8,036 nt of DNA from a virus (Duplodnaviria > Heunggongvirae > Uroviricota > Caudoviricetes), in the IMG/VR virus record IMGVR_UViG_2703718851_000009; one strand, given 5' to 3'. Shown here piece after piece: positions 1-6,653 of the stretch. Under the pieces are notes generated by a model. The model was not told the origin of the DNA, did no database searches, and saw only the letters and a program-made list of their open reading frames with translations. The translations under genes were made by a program, and so were the position numbers. Every line of letters starts with the position of its first letter. Position 1 is the first letter of the stretch.

Positions 1-1164
1 TTACGCCTTCTTTATATCCTCCATAATTCCACAGTGGGACATATTTGGGACATTATCACCAAAAATGTCGTCTATTTTCCTTGCATGCTCTGTCAAATGA
101 TTAGGCGCAAGGTGAGCATACCTACGAACCATTTCTATGGACTCCCATCCGCCCATTTCCTGAAGCACAGATAATGGGACGCCTGACTGGATCAGCCAGC
201 TTGCCCAGGTGTGTCTGAGGTCATGGAAACGGAAATCTTCAATTCCTGCACGACGACAAGCTGATAGCCATGATGTCTTGCTGTCGATGCGCATCTTCCT
301 GACCGCAGGCGTTGATGTTCCATCTGCTCGCTTAGCCGCCTTGGTATGTACAAACACCCATTTGTGATGCTTGCCTATTTGATCACGCAACACTTTACAG
401 GCGGTATCGTTCAGCGCCACACCAATGGCGCGGTTTGATTTGCTCTCTTCTGGGTTCACCCAGGCAACTCGTCGCTGCATGTCGATTTGTTGCCATTCCA
501 GATTTATGATGTTCGACTTTCTCAGACCAGTTGCCAGCGCAAACTTGACGACAGATTTCAGTGGTTCGGGGCACTCATCAATAAGGCGTTTTGCTTCCTC
601 CTTTTCCAGCCATCTGACGCGCTTGTTTCTGACCGCTGGTATCTTGATGACAGGCGCTTTTTCCAGCCACTTCCAGTCGCGTTCTGCAGCACGGAGAATG
701 GCCTTTATCATGGCAAGATGCTTTGCCTTTGTCTGAGTTGATACTGGCTTTGGTTCATAAACAGGCGGTTCTTTACCTTTCCTGATGGCGGCCTGAACTT
801 TCTGTTTCCATATTTCTTTCGTCTTTCTGTTATGCATTCTGCTTACAGCAGAGTAAATCTTTGCCTCCGAGATATCTTTAAGCCTTATACCCTCAAAATG
901 TTCAAGCCAGAACTCAATCCGGCTTTTATCTGAATCGAGAGATTTTTTATCAGCTTTTTCTTCAAGCCATCTTAGGCAGGCCTCTTCAAAAGTGACATCA
1001 GGTAAATCCCCTAGCTTTTCTACTCGCCAGAGTTCTGCTTTTCGCTTGTCGTGCAACTCCTGAGCTTGCCGCTTGTCCTTTGTGCCAAGAGATTCCTTAA
1101 TTCGTTTCCCGCCCGGGAGCGAATACGAGGCATACCATATTTCATTTCTGCGGAAGAGTGACAT
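1..1164 (-). CDS. int: Phage tyrosine integrase (P22/lambda Int family), 387 aa
   Basis: Full-length ORF; the N-terminus [21 protein letters not shown] and C-terminal [39 protein letters not shown] (catalytic R..HxxR..Y region) match, from memory, the P22-type integrase family. GAGGAA Shine-Dalgarno lies 6 nt upstream of the ATG at 1164. The stop codon is at window positions 1-3, so attL must lie left of the window. Confidence 0.95.
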
Positions 1165-1391
1165 TTTCTTTCCTCTGTTATGCCATCACCCGCGCTCACC
1201 TGGACAGTATGCAGCGGAGACTGAAGCGCCGCAATGCAAGCTTGCCGTGTTGTGAGGTAAGGAGATTTTGGCTTGGTTGGATCTTTACGTGTTGCCTGTA
1301 GGCGGCCTGTTCGTATCCAGTTGGTGGCGGTTGGTCTGGATATCTTAAGAAAATGACAGGCCTCATCGAGTGTGAGGCTGTATGGCTCCAT
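1020..1391 (-). CDS. xis: Excisionase-like / AlpA-type helix-turn-helix DNA-binding protein, 123 aa
   Basis: Sits immediately upstream of int on the same strand. N-terminus [26 protein letters not shown] resembles excisionase/AlpA HTH motifs. AGAGGTGA Shine-Dalgarno lies 4 nt upstream of the ATG. The 3' end overlaps the int start by 145 nt in another frame, so the true C-terminus is uncertain. Confidence 0.7.
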
Positions 1392-1395
1392 TATT

Positions 1396-1734
1396 TCACC
1401 TCTTGCTGTGACATTTTGAAAGATGGATACCAGCTCGTTGCTGCCAGACGATCCAACCGAGAGTCATATCCCATGCCATGTATTCGTTATCGCCGTTTTT
1501 TGCTCTCCGACGATCTACTAAGTCACCGAAACGCTTTTCCATGAATAATTCATAGGCTGCGCGTTCATCTGGCTCAACTTCCAGAGATGCCAGTGCAATC
1601 CGTGCCAGTTCTAAATCATCTTCAAGCTCAGCGTGAATCTCAGCGAATGCACTCTGTGTTAAGGCGAACTCAATGCTCTGCACTTTATTCCGTGCGCGCT
1701 CAAGCAGTGCATGGTAGTTAATTTCGGTTGTCAT
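1396..1734 (-). CDS. Hypothetical phage early protein, 112 aa, acidic
   Basis: ORF in the leftward operon. Its ATG overlaps the stop of the upstream PAPS-reductase-like gene (ATGA overlap at 1731-1734), suggesting translational coupling. I recognise no domain. Confidence 0.6.
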   Translation of the reverse strand: MTTEINYHALLERARNKVQSIEFALTQSAFAEIHAELEDDLELARIALASLEVEPDERAAYELFMEKRFGDLVDRRRAKNGDNEYMAWDMTLGWIVWQQRAGIHLSKCHSKR

Positions 1735-2609
1735 ACCCCTACCTCTTCGAATTTCAATTCCAATTGATCACCCCAGATTTCACATGACTCTGAACACGAG
1801 CCGGTATCGAATCGTCTGGCCTGTACCATCGCCTGATACAAATTTCTGTAGTCGCTGTTGGCAGACATTCTGGCAATTCCGTCAAGCGTCAGGTGACCAC
1901 GGTACATAACGTCTTTACCTGTTCTGCGATGACCATCCCTGACGTGTTTGCTTGTAACCAGCTCATTAAAAACTCGCATCAGACCAGGTTCGTCTTTACA
2001 TGCAAGCCCCAGCTTTTGCGTTGACTTTTTGATGCAGAAAACACAGTTCCCGAGATGCTCCGGGATTTGCAAATCAAAAGGTTGTTTTCGCCACCATCGG
2101 ATAACATCCGACTTATCAAAATCTGATAGCTCGGCAAGATACCGGACGCCCGATTTCGGTTTCAGCCTACTGGGTTCGTCTGCACGAATACCCAGCCATG
2201 TGATGTAATTACCTCGCCCGAAATGGTTATCGCAGTATTTCGTGAAAGGGATGAGTTTTAGCCTGTCAGTACAGAACGCGCCGCCGATGTATGGCGTGCC
2301 GTACTTTTTAACCATGTCCATAAACGGTTTAAGCACCGGCATTCGCGTCTGAATATCCTTTGGCTCCCATTCTGTATAACCATTAGGCTGCCCAAGCTCA
2401 GGATTTATATCGACCTGCAACACAGTTAGTGGTATGTCCCAGAACTTCACAACCTCCCGAATAAAGCGGTATGTCAGCGGATGTTCGCAACCGGTATCCA
2501 TAAAGATGTAGCAGACGTTATTGCCAGCCTTTCTTTGTTCTTCCATCAGGTGAACAAGATATGCAGATGTTCTCCCGCCAGAAAAACTAACTACATGAGT
2601 TATGCACAT
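1731..2609 (-). CDS. PAPS-reductase-like PP-loop ATP pyrophosphatase family protein, 292 aa
   Basis: N-terminal VVSFSGGRTSAYL is a PP-loop (SGGxxS) motif typical of the PAPS reductase/CysH/DndC-like superfamily. GGAG lies 8 nt upstream of the ATG. The start overlaps the stop of the HD-domain gene by 10 nt. Confidence 0.85.
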   Translation of the reverse strand: MCITHVVSFSGGRTSAYLVHLMEEQRKAGNNVCYIFMDTGCEHPLTYRFIREVVKFWDIPLTVLQVDINPELGQPNGYTEWEPKDIQTRMPVLKPFMDMVKKYGTPYIGGAFCTDRLKLIPFTKYCDNHFGRGNYITWLGIRADEPSRLKPKSGVRYLAELSDFDKSDVIRWWRKQPFDLQIPEHLGNCVFCIKKSTQKLGLACKDEPGLMRVFNELVTSKHVRDGHRRTGKDVMYRGHLTLDGIARMSANSDYRNLYQAMVQARRFDTGSCSESCEIWGDQLELKFEEVGV

Positions 2610-3136
2610 TTGCGTAACTCCGATAACTCGTTAAAACGTTCCATAAACATCCCGTAGGCATGTCCTGGTGACAGTGGAATCACTTTGAACATCTCTGTTG
2701 CTGGGATACCTTCCAGCACAGGCCAGAAAGAGCCATCATCAAGTCCGAGATCGCGGCGTTCTGTTGCCAGCATGATGAGATCGGCATATTTCACTGGCGT
2801 GCTCATAACCGGAGGTAACCCGTATTTCTCACGGATTACGGCGTCTATTTTTTCTTCCATCCGTTTATAGTCAGGAAGAAGGCGTTTCAGTGGTGCGGGG
2901 ATGTCCTGGCAATACGCTTCTGTTGCATCATGCATTAACGCTTCAAAAGCAAACTCCTCCGGTACCAGCATGCTGCAAAGCACCGCATGTTGGGCGACGC
3001 TATAGAAGTGTGAAAGGTGTCCTGCAAAGCGGCAGATATTTGAAAGGGAAACCGCGATATCGTTAATAACGATGTCGTCTTTATTTATCTTGTCATAATA
3101 AAAATGCTTCCCGGAAAAAGTTTTAATAAATGACAT
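2600..3136 (-). CDS. HD-domain phosphohydrolase, YfdR-like (5'-deoxynucleotidase family), 178 aa from the ATG at 3136
   Basis: H..HD metal-binding signature (SVAQHAVLCS...ALMHDATEAY). The ORF track starts at a GTG at 3163, but the ATG at 3136 has a strong GGAGAA Shine-Dalgarno 4 nt upstream and gives 178 aa, the length I recall for E. coli CPS-53 YfdR. That identification is from memory of length and domain, not a search. Confidence 0.85.
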   Translation of the reverse strand: MSFIKTFSGKHFYYDKINKDDIVINDIAVSLSNICRFAGHLSHFYSVAQHAVLCSMLVPEEFAFEALMHDATEAYCQDIPAPLKRLLPDYKRMEEKIDAVIREKYGLPPVMSTPVKYADLIMLATERRDLGLDDGSFWPVLEGIPATEMFKVIPLSPGHAYGMFMERFNELSELRKCA

Positions 3137-3180
3137 TTTGTTCTCCACGTATATGCGCTGCACCGCGCTGAATTTTGGTT

Positions 3181-3251
3181 AAAGAAAACCCTCGCCATCA
3201 GGCGATTATTGAGTCAATTATGTTTCCATAAATGCCCCCGCAGGGGCATTT
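3181..3251 (-). terminator. Intercistronic hairpins between the YfdQ-like and HD genes; possible partial terminator or attenuator
   Basis: Perfect 9-bp stem AAATGCCCC/GGGGCATTT with 4-nt loop at 3230-3251. A second 5-bp stem TCGCC/GGCGA at 3192-3205 is followed on the minus-strand RNA by GGGUUUUCUUU. Confidence 0.35.
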
Positions 3252-3263
3252 GCAGTAATGAAA

Positions 3264-4088
3264 TCAGGCGTTGAAAGTACCAATAAAGGTTTCTACTTTG
3301 CTGTCCTTGAATTTCTCAACAAGCAGATCACGAAATTCGTTAGCCATTTCTTCCTGCACTGCTTCCAGCTGAATAATGCGCAGAACCAGTACAGGACGAT
3401 CGCCAGTGATAATGCTGAGGCGTAATTTAAATGGACGTTCTTTCAGGCCTTCAAACGGAACGCATTTAAATTCAAATGCCACTGGCATAATGTCTTTGGT
3501 CTTCGCTTCGACAGACTCCATCAGGGAGCGTTTGCCGCTGAAGTCATTATCTTCAAAATCAGCGGTCTGGTTTGCTTCAATCGTGATTTTACGGACTGCC
3601 GCAGCCGCTTTTGTTGCCTGAATAGCGTCACCATTAGCATCAAAGCCCACAAGGTAGTCGGCCCAGTCTTCAATCCATTCTGCCAGTGACTTCTGGGTGT
3701 TACGCTCGCCGTTAACAGACAGCAGAGCAGAGAACGGTGCTGTCTTTTTCAGTTTGAGAGTGGCGGTGTTATCTGCGTGACCTGGTTCATCAATAGTACC
3801 CAGGTTAAGCACACTGACGGCACGCATATTATCAGCATCGATAAAGCAGCGGGTGCCTTCATCTGCAAGATCTTTAGAATAACGGGTAAAGTCATTGATG
3901 CTGGCAGTGGAAAGCGCACCACGGAAACGGAAGCGATTTAAATTAAATTTTTCCAGATCATGAATGCGGAAATTCTCAGGCAATGCCACAGCATCGGCAC
4001 CAATCTTACTGATAATTTCATTAACACCCTGAGCAGAAATAAGGGCATGGATTTGATTAATTGCGGTTGCGTCTAAGTTCTGAGACAT
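3264..4088 (-). CDS. YfdQ-like prophage protein (DUF2303-type), 274 aa
   Basis: Full ORF with GAGGA Shine-Dalgarno 6 nt upstream of the ATG. Length and position next to the HD gene match the CPS-53 yfdQ-yfdR arrangement as I recall it. Family assignment is by context and length, not by search. Confidence 0.75.
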
Positions 4089-4153
4089 AATAAGTCCTCA
4101 CTATATAAAGATCTTCAGTGATGAGATAAATAATCAGTTTATTAAAAACGATA

Positions 4154-4516
4154 TTAATGACCTGCTGCGCGGAGTTTTCCGTCAGGTTCACCGGCAAGAG
4201 TCAGTAATTGTCCCTGGTCTTCCTGCAGAATAGTCAGGCGACCACCACGATTGACATACATCGGCGTTTCGGTGGTGTCTTCTTCGGAAATTTTCCCGCG
4301 GTTAGTTGGGCGAACATATGAGAGTTTGTGTTTGATTTTCACACGGTTCTCATCAAATGGTTCGATTTCCAGGTTGAGTGAGACCTTACCTTTGGTTTTC
4401 GTGTTCATCACACCGGAAGCGACTTCACTGAGAACTGCGCCGATTTTGGTTTCAAATACGCCGCCGTCCAGCTCCCCGATAAATGCCTGCACATCAGTAC
4501 TGCGTTCGCTAGCCAT
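4154..4516 (-). CDS. Small hypothetical prophage protein (YfdP-like), 120 aa
   Basis: The ORF track extends this to 4834 (226 aa), but the N-terminal 106 residues translate a GC-rich structured region and look non-protein-like. The ATG at 4516 has a GAGGAG Shine-Dalgarno 7 nt upstream and gives 120 aa. Confidence 0.65.
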   Translation of the reverse strand: MASERSTDVQAFIGELDGGVFETKIGAVLSEVASGVMNTKTKGKVSLNLEIEPFDENRVKIKHKLSYVRPTNRGKISEEDTTETPMYVNRGGRLTILQEDQGQLLTLAGEPDGKLRAAGH

Positions 4517-4565
4517 TTTGCTGCTCCTCATCATATCGACCCTGCAAGGCCGATTAGTTTCTCCA

Positions 4566-4652
4566 CAAAACAGAGAAGAACACCTGCGGTGGCAGCCGCC
4601 CGGATGGATTGGGTTATGAGCCCGTCGTCCGGTGATGCTCTTCTCTGTTTTG
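4566..4652. repeat. Long hairpin: 14-bp perfect inverted repeat CAAAACAGAGAAGA / TCTTCTCTGTTTTG flanking a 59-nt GC-rich interior
   Basis: Arms at 4566-4579 and 4639-4652 are exact reverse complements. The interior contains further short complementary segments such as CCGGA..TCCGG. Confidence 0.6.
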
Positions 4653-4925
4653 TAAAAAGGACGGTACCAGCCGGAAGCAAGGGTACAAACTGGTACCGCC
4701 AGGACTACACACAGCATAAAGTTGTGGTGCCGGGTGCCTCCCGGTGCCTGGCGAAGGTTGCACACCAGACGGGTGGGTATCCACAGAAGGTCGACTGTCA
4801 GCCTCAACCTTAACCCGCGTGCGCTGAGCCGCATTCACCACAACGCTAAGGATTCTCTCTGGTTGAAAATACTTAGCTGTTATGTGCCTGCTTTTAGCCA
4901 CATCAGGCGAGGTGGACCTGGTTAT

Positions 4926-4971
4926 TCCCCAACAACAAGGATTCGGTTAATCTGGATATCCCCAACAACAA
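4926..4971 (+). repeat. Two copies of the 13-bp direct repeat TCCCCAACAACAA, spaced 33 bp
   Basis: Exact copies at 4926-4938 and 4959-4971, immediately upstream of the plus-strand ORF start. Confidence 0.6.
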
Positions 4972-4985
4972 TAAGAGTATTCAAT

Positions 4986-5501
4986 GTGATCGCTGAATTA
5001 ACGGCAGCAATGACGGCTATTCGTGAAACAGCCCAGATTGCAAAACTAATGAACGAGGCAAAAACTCAAGCTGAAGTAAATGCGGCTATTGGTGAGCTGA
5101 ACTCAAAGCTTGCGTCTATTCAGCGCGAATGCGTGTCTCTCGTTGAACTGGTGGGCTCTTATCAAGAAATAAATGCTTCTCTCAAAGCTAAAATTGCAGA
5201 ATTCGAAAACTTTGAGGCTCAGACGGAAGGCTATATCCTTAACCAACTTGAGTCGGGTACTTTTGTATACTCGAAGGAGGTAATCGTGAACGGTGGCAGC
5301 ATAACCATGCATCTTTGCCCAAAATGTTTTGGACAAAAGATAGTATCGATACTTCAACCATTCCCGGTTAGCGAAGATGAGCTTTTTCATAAAAGCAGGT
5401 GCCTCCACTGTGAAAATAAGTTTCTGATGAATAAAAATCCGGATTACGTATCGCCTCCATCCATTGAGGAGTTGTCCAGAAAACTTAACGGCAATCTGTA
5501 G
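4986..5501 (+). CDS. Orphan hypothetical protein, about 163-171 aa: predicted helical N-terminal half and C-terminal four-Cys (CPKC...CLHC) zinc-ribbon-like motif
   Basis: Plus-strand ORF opposite to all flanking early-left genes, AT-rich relative to its flanks, with a protein-like translation. Start is ambiguous: in-frame GTG at 4986 or ATG at 5010, both with weak Shine-Dalgarno. The ORF-track start at 4722 is rejected because the upstream part translates the structured region. An intrinsic terminator follows. Confidence 0.6.
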   Translation: MIAELTAAMTAIRETAQIAKLMNEAKTQAEVNAAIGELNSKLASIQRECVSLVELVGSYQEINASLKAKIAEFENFEAQTEGYILNQLESGTFVYSKEVIVNGGSITMHLCPKCFGQKIVSILQPFPVSEDELFHKSRCLHCENKFLMNKNPDYVSPPSIEELSRKLNGNL

Positions 5502-5540
5502 ATTACTACTGTTGTGGATATCCAGATTGTTAAAGAGCTA

Positions 5541-5563
5541 AGCGTCCTGTAGGGCGCTTTTTT
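5541..5563 (+). terminator. Rho-independent terminator for the plus-strand orphan gene
   Basis: 7-bp stem AGCGTCC/GGGCGCT (one G-U pair) with loop TGTA, followed by TTTTTT, 40 nt after the TAG stop at 5499-5501. Confidence 0.6.
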
Positions 5564-5649
5564 GTTGCTAACGAATCATCCTGGACTTCATATGCCCCAG
5601 GCGGCTACTTCGCGGGCGTCCTGCCTGTTCGTTATCTTTGATATAAAAT

Positions 5650-5699
5650 CTAACTTAACTTAGTTATCATGGCAAGAGAAAACACCAAACTTTTCTTAG
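5650..5699. promoter_or_regulatory. Putative OL: two 14-bp operator-like sites, CTAACttaaCTTAG (5650-5663) and CAAACttttCTTAG (5686-5699)
   Basis: Same 5-N4-5 architecture and CTTAG half-site as the two sites between cI and cro. Located just downstream of the cI stop, where OL/pL is expected. A possible leftward promoter (-35 TTGCCA at 5675-5670, -10 TAGATT at 5652-5647 on the minus strand) is inference only. Confidence 0.45.
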
Positions 5700-5728: not shown

Positions 5729-6355
5729 TTAGAGTTCGTATTGAACTCCTTTGACTACACCAATGATAAGGCAATTACCATTGATAGGGATGTTGGGATA
5801 CCGAGGATTTAATGGCACTAAAAACTTTTGAGGGCCATCGATGACTAATTTTTTTACTGTAGCTTCGTTTGTTCCATCAAGTCGAGCGATGACTATTTTT
5901 CCATGACGAGGTTCTGCATCTGGATCTACAATCACTGTTGCGCCTTCTGGTATTGTTGGGAGGCCATTAGGGTTAGTCATGGAGTCACCTTTAACCTCTA
6001 ATGCAAATGAGTTATCACCAACCTTTAATGATGTATCTACCCACTTGTCCACTTCACTAAACACTTCTGCTGCCCTGCACTCAGTAAACTGCCCAGCCTG
6101 AACCCACGATATTACAGGAACTCTGCGCATGTTTGTGACGAGTTTGCCTTCAAACTCAGCACCATAAAGAATGTAATCTATTGACGTATTGAAGAACTTC
6201 GCTAATTTCGAAAGTGCCTCCCCGCCAGGGGTATTGATGTCTTTCTCCCAGTACCCCACAGCAACGTCGCTTACTCCACAAAATTTACCCAATTCTTTCT
6301 GGGACGTTCTGGTAACTCTTCTCAGAGCTTTTATACGCTGACCAACCGTTTCCAT
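5729..6355 (-). CDS. cI: CI/C2-type prophage repressor: N-terminal XRE-family HTH plus C-terminal LexA-like S24 autopeptidase domain, 208 aa
   Basis: HTH region QKELGKFCGVSDVAVGYWE, Ala-Gly autocleavage site in ISWVQAGQF, Ser nucleophile in GDSM and Lys in TVKKLV. Strong resemblance to the P22 C2 repressor family (ISWVSAGQW, QGDSM, NPxYP, INGNC motifs) as recalled. Transcribed divergently from cro. Confidence 0.95.
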   Translation of the reverse strand: METVGQRIKALRRVTRTSQKELGKFCGVSDVAVGYWEKDINTPGGEALSKLAKFFNTSIDYILYGAEFEGKLVTNMRRVPVISWVQAGQFTECRAAEVFSEVDKWVDTSLKVGDNSFALEVKGDSMTNPNGLPTIPEGATVIVDPDAEPRHGKIVIARLDGTNEATVKKLVIDGPQKFLVPLNPRYPNIPINGNCLIIGVVKGVQYEL

Positions 6356-6377: not shown

Positions 6378-6440
6378 CTAAGTAATCTTAGTTTTTATTG
6401 ACCAAAGATAGATTTGTAATTAGCATCTAACAAAACTTAG
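6378..6440. promoter_or_regulatory. Putative OR/PR: operator-like sites CTAAGtaatCTTAG (6378-6391, perfect palindrome) and CTAACaaaaCTTAG (6427-6440) bracketing a sigma70-like promoter towards cro
   Basis: -35 TTGACC at 6398-6403, 17-bp spacer, -10 TAGCAT at 6421-6426. The second operator overlaps the -10/start site. GGAGGG Shine-Dalgarno at 6444-6449 precedes the cro ATG. Confidence 0.55.
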
Positions 6441-6452
6441 TTTGGAGGGCGT

Positions 6453-6653
6453 ATGACAACTGACGATATCGAAAGCTACTTCGGCAGTATTGAGAAAGTT
6501 GCTGCTTTTTTCGGCATAACAACTGAAGCCGTTTATCAGTGGCGAAACCGTCCGGGCCAGTTAATTCCAAAAGGACGTGCAGCAGAAGCTGCATATAGAA
6601 CTTGCGGACGGTTGCCATTTAAACCTGAGCTTTATGAAAAATCTAATGGATAA
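6453..6653 (+). CDS. cro: Cro-like HTH regulator (YdaS/Cro family), 66 aa
   Basis: Small HTH protein (FGITTEAVYQWRNR) divergent from cI, with a C-terminal ...KPELY motif typical of YdaS-type Cro proteins. Good Shine-Dalgarno. Confidence 0.85.
   Translation: MTTDDIESYFGSIEKVAAFFGITTEAVYQWRNRPGQLIPKGRAAEAAYRTCGRLPFKPELYEKSNG

Follow-up and report, generated by a model that had tools for sequence, protein, structure and literature searches.

Gene order and the early-left leader

The window, that is, the whole stretch of 8,036 nucleotides (nt) analyzed here (IMG/VR record IMGVR_UViG_2703718851_000009), is to judge from its sequence an argW-integrated lambdoid prophage of the CPS-53/SfV/mEp460-like (also ST64B-type) kind, and the element under study, positions 4517-4985, is its untranslated early-left (pL) leader, located between the immunity region and yfdP. 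The minus-strand genes run, from the left, through integrase, several small early genes, yfdR, yfdQ (DUF2303) and yfdP, after which comes the leader; to the right of it lie a plus-strand gene (4986-5501), the gene of a LexA/S24-type cI repressor (5729-6355, minus strand) and cro (6453-6653, plus strand). A prophage of Escherichia coli N61 adjoining tRNA-Arg shows 100% identity over 701 bases around 4517-4985, and induced phages such as PhiR29_1 show 99% identity to the same 701 bases. In the direction of yfdP, the leader carries a small RNA (sRNA) cassette with its terminator T1 (module 1) and then a long hairpin (module 2); the features are listed in Table 1.

Table 1. Features of the early-left leader and of the promoter assigned to it, in window positions.
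Feature	Position	Strand	Basis or remark
Predicted pL, TTGCCA-17-TAGATT	5647..5675	-	Promoter scan; outside 4517-4985 but defines the transcript
Conserved block between sRNA module and divergent plus-strand gene	4878..4975		Two direct repeats TCCCCAACAACAA, 4926-4938 and 4959-4971
Predicted sRNA of ~191 nt: STnc100-family/sRNA-17-type cassette, linker and terminator	4654..4844	-	Ends by analogy with sRNA-17
Closing helix P1, 5' strand GUUGUGGUG	4836..4844	-	Perfect 9-nt inverted repeat with 4721-4729
Hairpin CCGGG-AGGCA-CCCGG abutting P1 3' strand, within the 20-nt signature CCGGGAGGCACCCGGCACCA	4730..4744	-	Fold, 20-mer matches
Closing helix P1, 3' strand CACCACAAC	4721..4729	-	Inverted repeat, fold, cassette alignment
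Single-stranded linker UUUAUGCUGUGUGUAGUCCU, candidate seed or Hfq-binding segment	4699..4720	-	Motif kept across cassettes
Intrinsic terminator T1, 13-bp stem GGCGGUACCAGCC.../...GGCUGGUACCGUC, then U5 at 4654-4658	4654..4698	-	Fold
Long conserved hairpin, outer stem ~25 bp (4634-4658 with 4560-4584)	4559..4661	-	Fold, covariation
Arms of the three-way junction: arm 1; variable arm 2	4600-4632; 4586-4599	-	Fold
Apex GGG-CUCAUAA-CCC, CAU at 4616-4618	4611..4623	-	Identical to E. coli initiator tRNA-fMet anticodon stem-loop
Small GC-rich hairpin AUCGGCCUUGCAGGGUCGAU between long hairpin and yfdP ribosome-binding site	4535..4554	-	Fold
yfdP, first early-left operon gene, downstream of the leader	4154..4516	-	RefSeq WP_000135680.1 in identical genome

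The leader had been singled out, from the letters of the DNA alone, as a GC-rich, self-complementary candidate for a structured RNA (the original prediction). Its GC content is 54-56.5% across 4401-4900 compared to 37-47% on either side. The perfect 14-bp inverted repeat noticed at 4566-4579/4639-4652 is the core of 25-nt arms (4565-4589/4629-4653), which G-U pairs complete to an unbroken 25-bp stem in the minus-strand RNA, GGTACCA/TGGTACC belongs to a perfect 9-nt repeat (4662-4670/4690-4698) that forms a 13-bp stem with CCUUUUUAC after it, and CCGGG/CCCGG is present at 4730-4744. The three open reading frames (ORFs) listed for the stretch exist but are artifacts, having no Pfam match and no coding pattern in homologues. 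Folding of both strands gives z=-5.4 for 4517-4985 on the minus strand, with 0/100 shuffles as good, and z=-2.6 on the plus strand; this asymmetry and the G-U pairs that complete helices on the minus strand only indicate an RNA read leftward, in the same direction as yfdP. The view of the stretch as a structured noncoding RNA is supported, as is its placement on the leftward early transcript, with the immunity region on one side and the first early-left gene on the other. So is the doubt about a retron, since neither the identical RefSeq locus nor the related phage, taken whole, has a reverse transcriptase among its annotated genes. What finds no support is the assignment to put/nut elements or to a small palindromic insertion, taken up below. 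The strand asymmetry, the 9-bp helix (4721-4729/4836-4844) closing the upstream domain, the separable modules, the relationship to STnc100 and sRNA-17 and the tRNA-like features had escaped notice.

The predicted pL is the sole sigma-70-like leftward promoter downstream of cI in the promoter scan. An operator-like palindrome, CTAAGTTAAGTTAG (5650-5663), overlaps it and resembles the OR palindromes at 6378-6391 and 6427-6440, between which lies a predicted rightward promoter (TTGACC-17-TAGCAT, 6398-6426); from these promoter/palindrome sets we infer pL/OL and pR/OR. The CTAAG-N4-CTTAG palindromes over both predicted early promoters are probably sites for the LexA/S24-type repressor. Scanning both strands for sigma-70-like promoters returned 0 in 1-4700 (6.3 expected) and 0 in 4100-5600 (1.9 expected), so that the sRNA module has no sigma-70-like site of its own in the latter interval; a GAGAAU at ~4848-4853 has no usable -35 on hand inspection. 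Counted from pL up to the start codon of yfdP, the leader would measure ~1.1 kb and run antisense through the plus-strand gene.

A long hairpin conserved by compensatory change

The long hairpin folds with -51.2 kcal/mol (z=-7.8). Arm 1 of its three-way junction reads CCGGA-C-GA-C-GGG[CUCAUAA]CCC-AA-UC-CA-UCCGG, and arm 2, short here, is longer and variable elsewhere. Homologues were drawn from viral contigs, GTDB species representatives and GenBank phages, giving an alignment of 121 distinct sequences (A3); their genera include Escherichia, Shigella, Salmonella, Klebsiella, Citrobacter, Enterobacter, Kosakonia, Leclercia, Mixta, Erwinia and Phytobacter. Standard pairs occupy 95.2% of the cells in this alignment, compared to 40-51% when the partners are slid. 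Both sides are altered in 11 of the 34 pairs (203 cells), and the covariation score is reached by 0/500 shuffles. The double changes include G-C to C-G in columns 17/116 (48 sequences), A-U to G-C in columns 23/110 (33 sequences) and G-C to A-U in columns 34/58 (30 sequences). The long hairpin is a real, selected RNA structure. It keeps its leader position in hundreds of phages and many enterobacterial genera with compensatory changes, which argues against the small palindromic insertion considered in the original prediction.

The motif is very common and appears undescribed, and the long hairpin matches no Rfam family even at E<=10. Of 5426 complete E. coli genomes, 2492 (46%) contain hairpins of this type (>=90% identity), with up to five copies each, and 1875 contain the window-type cassette; the hairpin region in those genomes is annotated as "hypothetical protein" or not at all. 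A YfdP-family protein is the first gene 3' of the hairpin in about two-thirds of 130 distinct loci, and the first gene is otherwise an RdgC-like or HD-hydrolase gene. Between hairpin and first gene, a GC hairpin of unrelated sequence occupies the place of 4535-4554 in SfII, ST64B, Kp4866-6 and many viral contigs. The GGAGAA(A) directly 3' of the long hairpin (4559-4566) is invariant in 121/121 homologues, even in those without a U-tract that it could pair with; possible roles are as a standby ribosome-binding site and as a processing signal.

What is at the tip of this hairpin? Fourteen consecutive nt, CGGGCUCAUAACCC, are common to the apex and tRNA-fMet, displayed in the hairpin as a stem of three G-C pairs with a 7-nt loop; the tRNA-fMet sequence used has a 100% match in 5426/5426 E. 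coli genomes, where it is annotated as tRNA-Met. The identical 13-nt stem-loop caps an arm whose length is close to that of the stacked anticodon and D stems of the tRNA, whereas the long hairpin has no acceptor end, D arm or T arm. Our first searches were baited with the apex, and a repeat search was anchored on the outer stem only and was blind to the loop. In the loop-blind search the apex is always GGG[CU][CU]CAU[AU][AC]CCC: the CAU and the three G-C pairs virtually never change, and loop positions 37-38 are AA, UA or UC. The window contains a single copy of the apex motif, and so does the entire PhiR29_1 genome; no second copy was found on the pR side. ARAGORN found no tRNA cloverleaf in the window, and 4450-5050 contains no Rfam tRNA match at E<=10.

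One idea, kissing of the CAU loop with the start codon of the first gene, was rejected, as loop variants do not covary with start-codon context among the 130 loci. An antisense micro-ORF from the ATG opposite the CAU (MSPS...) was also set aside; it has 11 codons in many members and no synonymous-site pattern. A chance match to the apex pattern was met in a tRNA-fMet-like gene of a metagenome-assembled gammaproteobacterium (Gammaproteobacteria DTU037; L255, ~3660-3730), in which the anticodon stem is followed directly by the acceptor 3' strand and the variable and T arms are missing.

An STnc100- and sRNA-17-type cassette upstream of the hairpin

At gathering thresholds, an Rfam scan of the whole window gives no match. 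In E-value mode, the STnc100 model (RF02076) aligns to 4652-4874 of the minus strand, untruncated from model position 1 to 206 of 206, with 41.2 bits (E=1.5e-7), below the gathering threshold of 47 bits. The homologous stretches of PhiR29_1, SfII, phiES15 and ST64B score 35-42 bits, and in PhiR29_1 module 1 is the sole STnc100-like element of the whole genome. Judged by this alignment and by the motifs below, module 1 is a divergent member of a known sRNA family. P1 closes a multi-branched domain with several internal hairpins, after which come the linker and the terminator; the predicted RNA opens with the initial base of P1 (GUUGUGG) and stops where the U-tract ends.

When eight divergent cassettes are aligned, helices P1, P2, P4 and P5 are recovered and 6 pairs are altered on both sides. 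The P1 pairing is kept in all eight, and phiES15, with AUUGUGG/CCACAAU, has a change on both sides. The 20-mer CCGGGAGGCACCCGGCACCA is exact in at least 120 viral contigs and is common to canonical STnc100 copies, and the Kp4866-6-type cassette has GUGG-AGGCA-CCAC in its place, another stem with the same loop. The linker motif UGCUGUGUGWAGUC is kept across differing cassette types. The T1 stem is wholly different in sequence yet complementary in ST64B (GUCGGCGUC/GACGCCGAC), in Klebsiella phage Kp4866-6 (GGCGGUUAUCC/GGAUAACCGCC) and in others. A motif 5' of P1, AGUGCUCUCUUC, resembles boxA in part and is not preserved in the window type.

STnc100, also reported as EcOnc27/sRNA103 and related to PasD, is an Hfq-associated prophage sRNA, with Hfq binding and pairing in trans reported for EcOnc27 and PasD; STnc100/EcOnc27 has been reported downstream of stx2 and PasD near Q. 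By analogy with these relatives, module 1 could bind Hfq and act by base pairing in trans. The likeness comprises the full-length model alignment, the identical motifs UGGUGAAU and CACCGGGAGGCACCCGGCACCA, from which P1 and the hairpin next to it are formed, shared helices P1, P4 and P5, a shared linker and terminator, a length of ~190-206 nt, and a place in an operon leader of lambdoid prophages. The window copy differs in its P2/P3 region as well as in its score, and it lies in the early-left leader upstream of yfdP, whereas canonical copies lie in the late region before holin or NanS-type esterase genes and often have a promoter of their own, none being detectable in the window.

Where do canonical STnc100 copies reside? 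Among the matches listed for the 20-mer CCGGGAGGCACCCGGCACCA, 113 distinct loci were surveyed. A TTGAYN-N16-18-TANNNT promoter ends 4-13 nt before the closing helix in 30 of them, and 88 have a terminator within 140 nt; the genes that follow encode holins of three Pfam families or a DUF1737/SASA esterase. From these positions we take canonical STnc100 copies to be short promoter-to-terminator leader RNAs of late operons, positioned like the lambda pR'-tR' transcript, in accord with the sites reported for STnc100/EcOnc27 and PasD. The location of these cores between a promoter and a terminator, before holin or esterase genes, makes the module 1 type a recurring phage operon-leader RNA. Five contigs (L013, L024, L042, L060 and L081) carry two canonical cores in tandem, 484-492 bp apart, and in other contigs the distance is ~920-950 bp.

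An experimentally described counterpart is sRNA-17 of E. coli K1 RS218, a Northern-positive RNA of 193 nt with ends mapped by 5'/3' rapid amplification of cDNA ends, encoded in an intergenic region of >1 kb of an mEp460-like prophage; its deletion raised yfdP mRNA 2^6.6 (~95-fold) and yfdR mRNA too (Sun et al. 2020, PMC7719688). We identified its sequence via the primer table of that paper: the full-length primers start with CGTTGTGGTGAATGCGCAGG and end with GGTACCGCTCTTTT (Table S2, PMC7719688), so that the RNA starts, at its 5' side, at (C)GUUGUGGUGAAUGCGCAGG and stops at GGUACCGCUCUUUU. Comparison of the mEp460 locus (L129) with the window shows that sRNA-17 is the mEp460-type cassette with the same terminator, upstream of yfdP. 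The two share the slot between cI and yfdP in a CPS-53/mEp460-like prophage, the start of the closing helix (GUUGUGGUGAAU), the terminator (GGCGGUACCAG...CUGGUACCGC and a U-tract) and nearly their length (193 versus 191 nt). They differ in the cassette interior, which is of other sequence, and megablast identity to mEp460-type phages ends at window position 4701, where the terminator begins on its 5' side; in the terms of that paper, window-type copies would count as "degenerative sRNA-17." No Rfam relative was found for sRNA-17 there, and the downstream hairpin was not described (PMC7719688). The link from sRNA-17 to STnc100 seems not to have been made before.

A third prophage sRNA, DicF (RF00039) of the dicB early operon of the Qin prophage, resembles the linker and terminator in being a short RNA with a GGCGGUAYCAG... 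terminator stem in an early-left-type operon. The DicF model gives weak matches, 15.7 bits in the window and 28.2 bits in relatives (L214 and L174), compared to a threshold of 48, and its seed sequence is another one.

Exchange of cassettes between constant flanks

The sequences upstream of the hairpin were clustered, giving 205 distinct leaders. In 192 of them, a T1-like hairpin (-10 kcal/mol or better) with a T-run lies directly upstream of the long hairpin, and in 157 a cassette is bounded by GUUGUG...CACAAC, with preferred lengths of ~59, 115, 124 and 135 nt and unrelated interiors. A few phages have no such cassette: in L145 the terminator and hairpin come straight after pL, and in L182 the hairpin does so on its own; these layouts indicate that the hairpin is the constant leader element and the cassette the exchangeable one. 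The mosaic boundaries in the region coincide with RNA helices, not with codons.

Some of the cassettes are tRNA-like. The L196 cassette matches the Rfam tRNA model with 43.9 bits (threshold 29), and other cassettes carry T-arm-like hairpins with UUCGAUU loops, so that the closing helix plays the part of a tRNA acceptor stem onto which a T-arm-like hairpin stacks. ARAGORN made no tRNA call on ten loci with other cassettes, the L196 type included. Seen individually, the tRNA-like cassettes (L196, 1077-1203, minus strand; L214, ~3260-3390) have good D and T arms, an insertion of ~56 nt and an internal UUCAUAA (CAU) loop. The swapping of tRNA-like and STnc100-like cassettes between identical flanks is typical of elements under diversifying selection, such as those with anti-defense functions.

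In K-12, the leader of CPS-53 (L359, 7247-7605) has been deleted, including hairpin, terminator and cassette, with the last ~25 nt before yfdP left and preceded by GACGGGTCAGATTTTGA-like repeats. Because of this deletion, K-12 data are uninformative on this RNA.

Proposed function and alternative explanations

Starting from the structures, their conservation and covariation, the leader position and the STnc100 homology, we propose, with a probability of roughly 60%, that the region is a structured untranslated early-left leader RNA built of exchangeable modules, in which a terminator-bounded sRNA gates read-through and the hairpin beyond it serves as an RNase III or factor-binding element; T1 gating, RNase III processing and an apex ligand are the inferred parts. 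Transcription from pL would yield an RNA of ~190 nt ending at T1, formed either as such or by processing at the foot of the closing helix, which could act in trans like its STnc100, PasD and sRNA-17 relatives. T1 would be a gate limiting transcription into yfdP-yfdQ-yfdR...xis-int, and the long hairpin would form only in transcripts that read through T1. RNase III cleaves duplexes of 25 bp, and the outer stem, being of this size, may be a processing or stability element of that type. The invariant apex may be recognized by a conserved host factor, the most plausible candidate being one that normally reads the anticodon arm of tRNA-fMet.

Several points weigh against this model. The STnc100 score stays under the gathering threshold, and the variation at apex positions 37-38 argues against a strict tRNA-fMet mimic. 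The predicted pL lies ~980 nt upstream of module 1, antisense through the plus-strand gene, and an unrecognized local promoter may drive the module instead. Cleavage by RNase III is deduced purely from duplex length, and the gating model names no factor that would carry polymerase past T1. Expression has been shown for the sister cassette, sRNA-17, whereas the RNAs of the window cassette and hairpin are predicted ones. Finally, the rise of yfdP mRNA in the sRNA-17 deletion could be due to the resistance cassette that was inserted and not to the removal of a barrier, the terminator being retained in the mutant.

An improbable alternative is processive antitermination by an HK022 put-like or nut-like RNA, in which cassette and/or hairpin would bind polymerase, alone or with Nus factors, and carry it past T1 and downstream terminators in a phage lacking N. 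The phage does have Q and no annotated N, the elements stand in the pL leader directly around an intrinsic terminator, several weaker terminator-like sites occur on the minus strand within the early-left operon, and canonical STnc100 relatives occupy the late leader, likewise an antitermination-controlled position. There is also an rrn-type boxA-like site, AGCUCUUUAACAA/AGCTCTTTAACAA, at 5527-5539 of the minus strand, ~100 nt past the predicted pL start and right after a hairpin at 5540-5559. It has one mismatch to the rrn boxA TGCTCTTTAACAA, but the match is not beyond chance, as 57/200 shuffles also gave one at <=2 mismatches; no boxB equivalent was identified, PhiR29_1 has no annotated N, and the first downstream protein, YfdP, is without a Pfam match. 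In addition, boxA-type complexes counter Rho and not intrinsic terminators. HK022 put, ~70 nt with two stems, occurs in two related copies right after PL and PR (PMC9378689). Like the window elements, it is a cis-encoded structured RNA that precedes terminators in an early leader, and its phage too is a lambdoid one that lacks N; the window elements, by contrast, are 190 and 103 nt, lie ~800-1080 nt from the predicted pL and show no likeness to putL in sequence, size or position by eye (without alignment), and there is one apex motif per genome, unaccompanied by a copy on the pR side. Membership of put, raised in the original prediction, is not supported. Exchange of the cassette for unrelated structures, tRNA-like ones included, between constant flanks is hard to fit with a specific polymerase-binding fold. 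As a separate matter, boxA protects rRNA and CRISPR arrays from Rho, and the boxA-like site could shield the untranslated leader of ~1.1 kb in the same way.

The resemblance to tRNA raises another possibility, to which we likewise give a small chance: a tRNA-mimic decoy or sponge, whose apex, possibly freed by RNase III, would early after induction or infection titrate a tRNA-fMet-targeting protein (for example, the VapC/MvpT anticodon nuclease of Shigella/Salmonella) or engage methionyl-tRNA synthetase (MetRS), initiation factor 3 (IF3) or the 30S P site. The shared 14 nt, with three consecutive G-C pairs and presented as a 7-nt loop, the near invariance of CAU and these pairs amid varying surroundings, the placement of the hairpin in the first RNA made from pL, and the neighboring tRNA-like and T-arm-like cassettes would all fit. 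tRNA-mimic operators exist, for example in the thrS leader. The host range (Shigella, Salmonella and E. coli) also matches that of the initiator-tRNA-cleaving VapC enzymes (cited in PMC10264068). On the other hand, restriction of these phages by VapC is a supposition, and the argument is one from sequence resemblance. The fourth pair of the tRNA stem is not kept, being a C-A mismatch, and apex positions 37-38, which we take to adjoin the reported VapC cleavage site, vary (AA, UA, UC). No covarying partner gene was found, the first downstream gene differing among loci.

A wider version of this idea, speculative and on balance unlikely, is that the long hairpin represents an undescribed and widespread class of phage leader RNA whose invariant tip functionally mimics the anticodon arm of initiator tRNA, and which together with the swappable tRNA-derived cassettes forms an early RNA decoy or sensor for factors acting on tRNA-fMet, such as VapC, MetRS, IF3 or the 30S P site. 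If true, it would be an RNA-based device for counter-defense or translation takeover.

A decayed protein-coding gene, the reading behind the label "frameshifted hypothetical protein" that the NCBI Prokaryotic Genome Annotation Pipeline (PGAP) puts on 4531-4841 of the minus strand as a RefSeq pseudogene call, and behind the ORFs annotated in the region in several phage records, is very improbable given similarity at comparable levels in every frame of both strands, compensatory substitutions in the helices, ORFs with no Pfam family and of unconserved length, and mosaic boundaries at RNA helices rather than codons. In particular, all six frames have similar tblastn identities (41-57%) to the 77%-identical ST64B DNA, the frames are also comparable with one another in similarity to the phiES15 and mEp460 homologues, and the best ORF, of 95 amino acids, splits across two frames in ST64B.

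Significance for annotation and for STnc100-type RNAs

Thousands of enterobacterial genomes label this stretch as "hypothetical protein," as "frameshifted pseudogene" or not at all, and an RNA annotation is warranted. The locus brings together three previously unconnected literatures: one on the Rfam family STnc100/EcOnc27/PasD, one on sRNA-17 of meningitis E. coli, and one on early-left leaders in phages of the CPS-53/SfV/ST64B/mEp460 type. The findings suggest that RNAs of the STnc100 type are in general promoter-to-first-terminator leader RNAs of phage operons, a view that, if true, would explain their abundance in lysogens and the reported "virulence" phenotypes. The covariation-supported RNA motif with a tRNA-fMet-like tip is newly defined and directly testable.

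Other features of the region and of related phages

The conserved block between the sRNA module and the divergent plus-strand gene is 81-97% conserved in F1055, Kp4866-6 and phiES15, with differing flanks, and contains no sigma-70-like promoter. Its perfect 13-nt direct repeat, with a spacing of 33 nt, lies in the divergent region ahead of the plus-strand gene; at this position, related phages have a covarying inverted repeat with the conserved center UGUGUGAGAAC and then a conserved block ACCACCKCGCCTGATGTGGYTAAAAGCAGGC.

The plus-strand gene itself, between cI and the early-left leader, encodes a coiled-coil-like protein of 171 amino acids with C-terminal Cys pairs, whose sole Pfam match is a weak one to TMF_TATA_bd. 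It has its own strong terminator (5540-5559) and is transcribed against pL, and it looks like a moron or exclusion gene.

Further RNAs were met in related phages. Two matches to IS009 RNA (229 and 106 bits) lie in the tail-fiber assembly region of PhiR29_1 (L358, 40146-40344 and 41190-41393). The rightward early operons of Stx2a_1447 and ST64B contain isrK and C4 antisense RNA above the Rfam threshold (L130, 5730-5918; L138, 9473-9661; L003, 5231-5307), meaning that those phages carry several leader-embedded RNAs.

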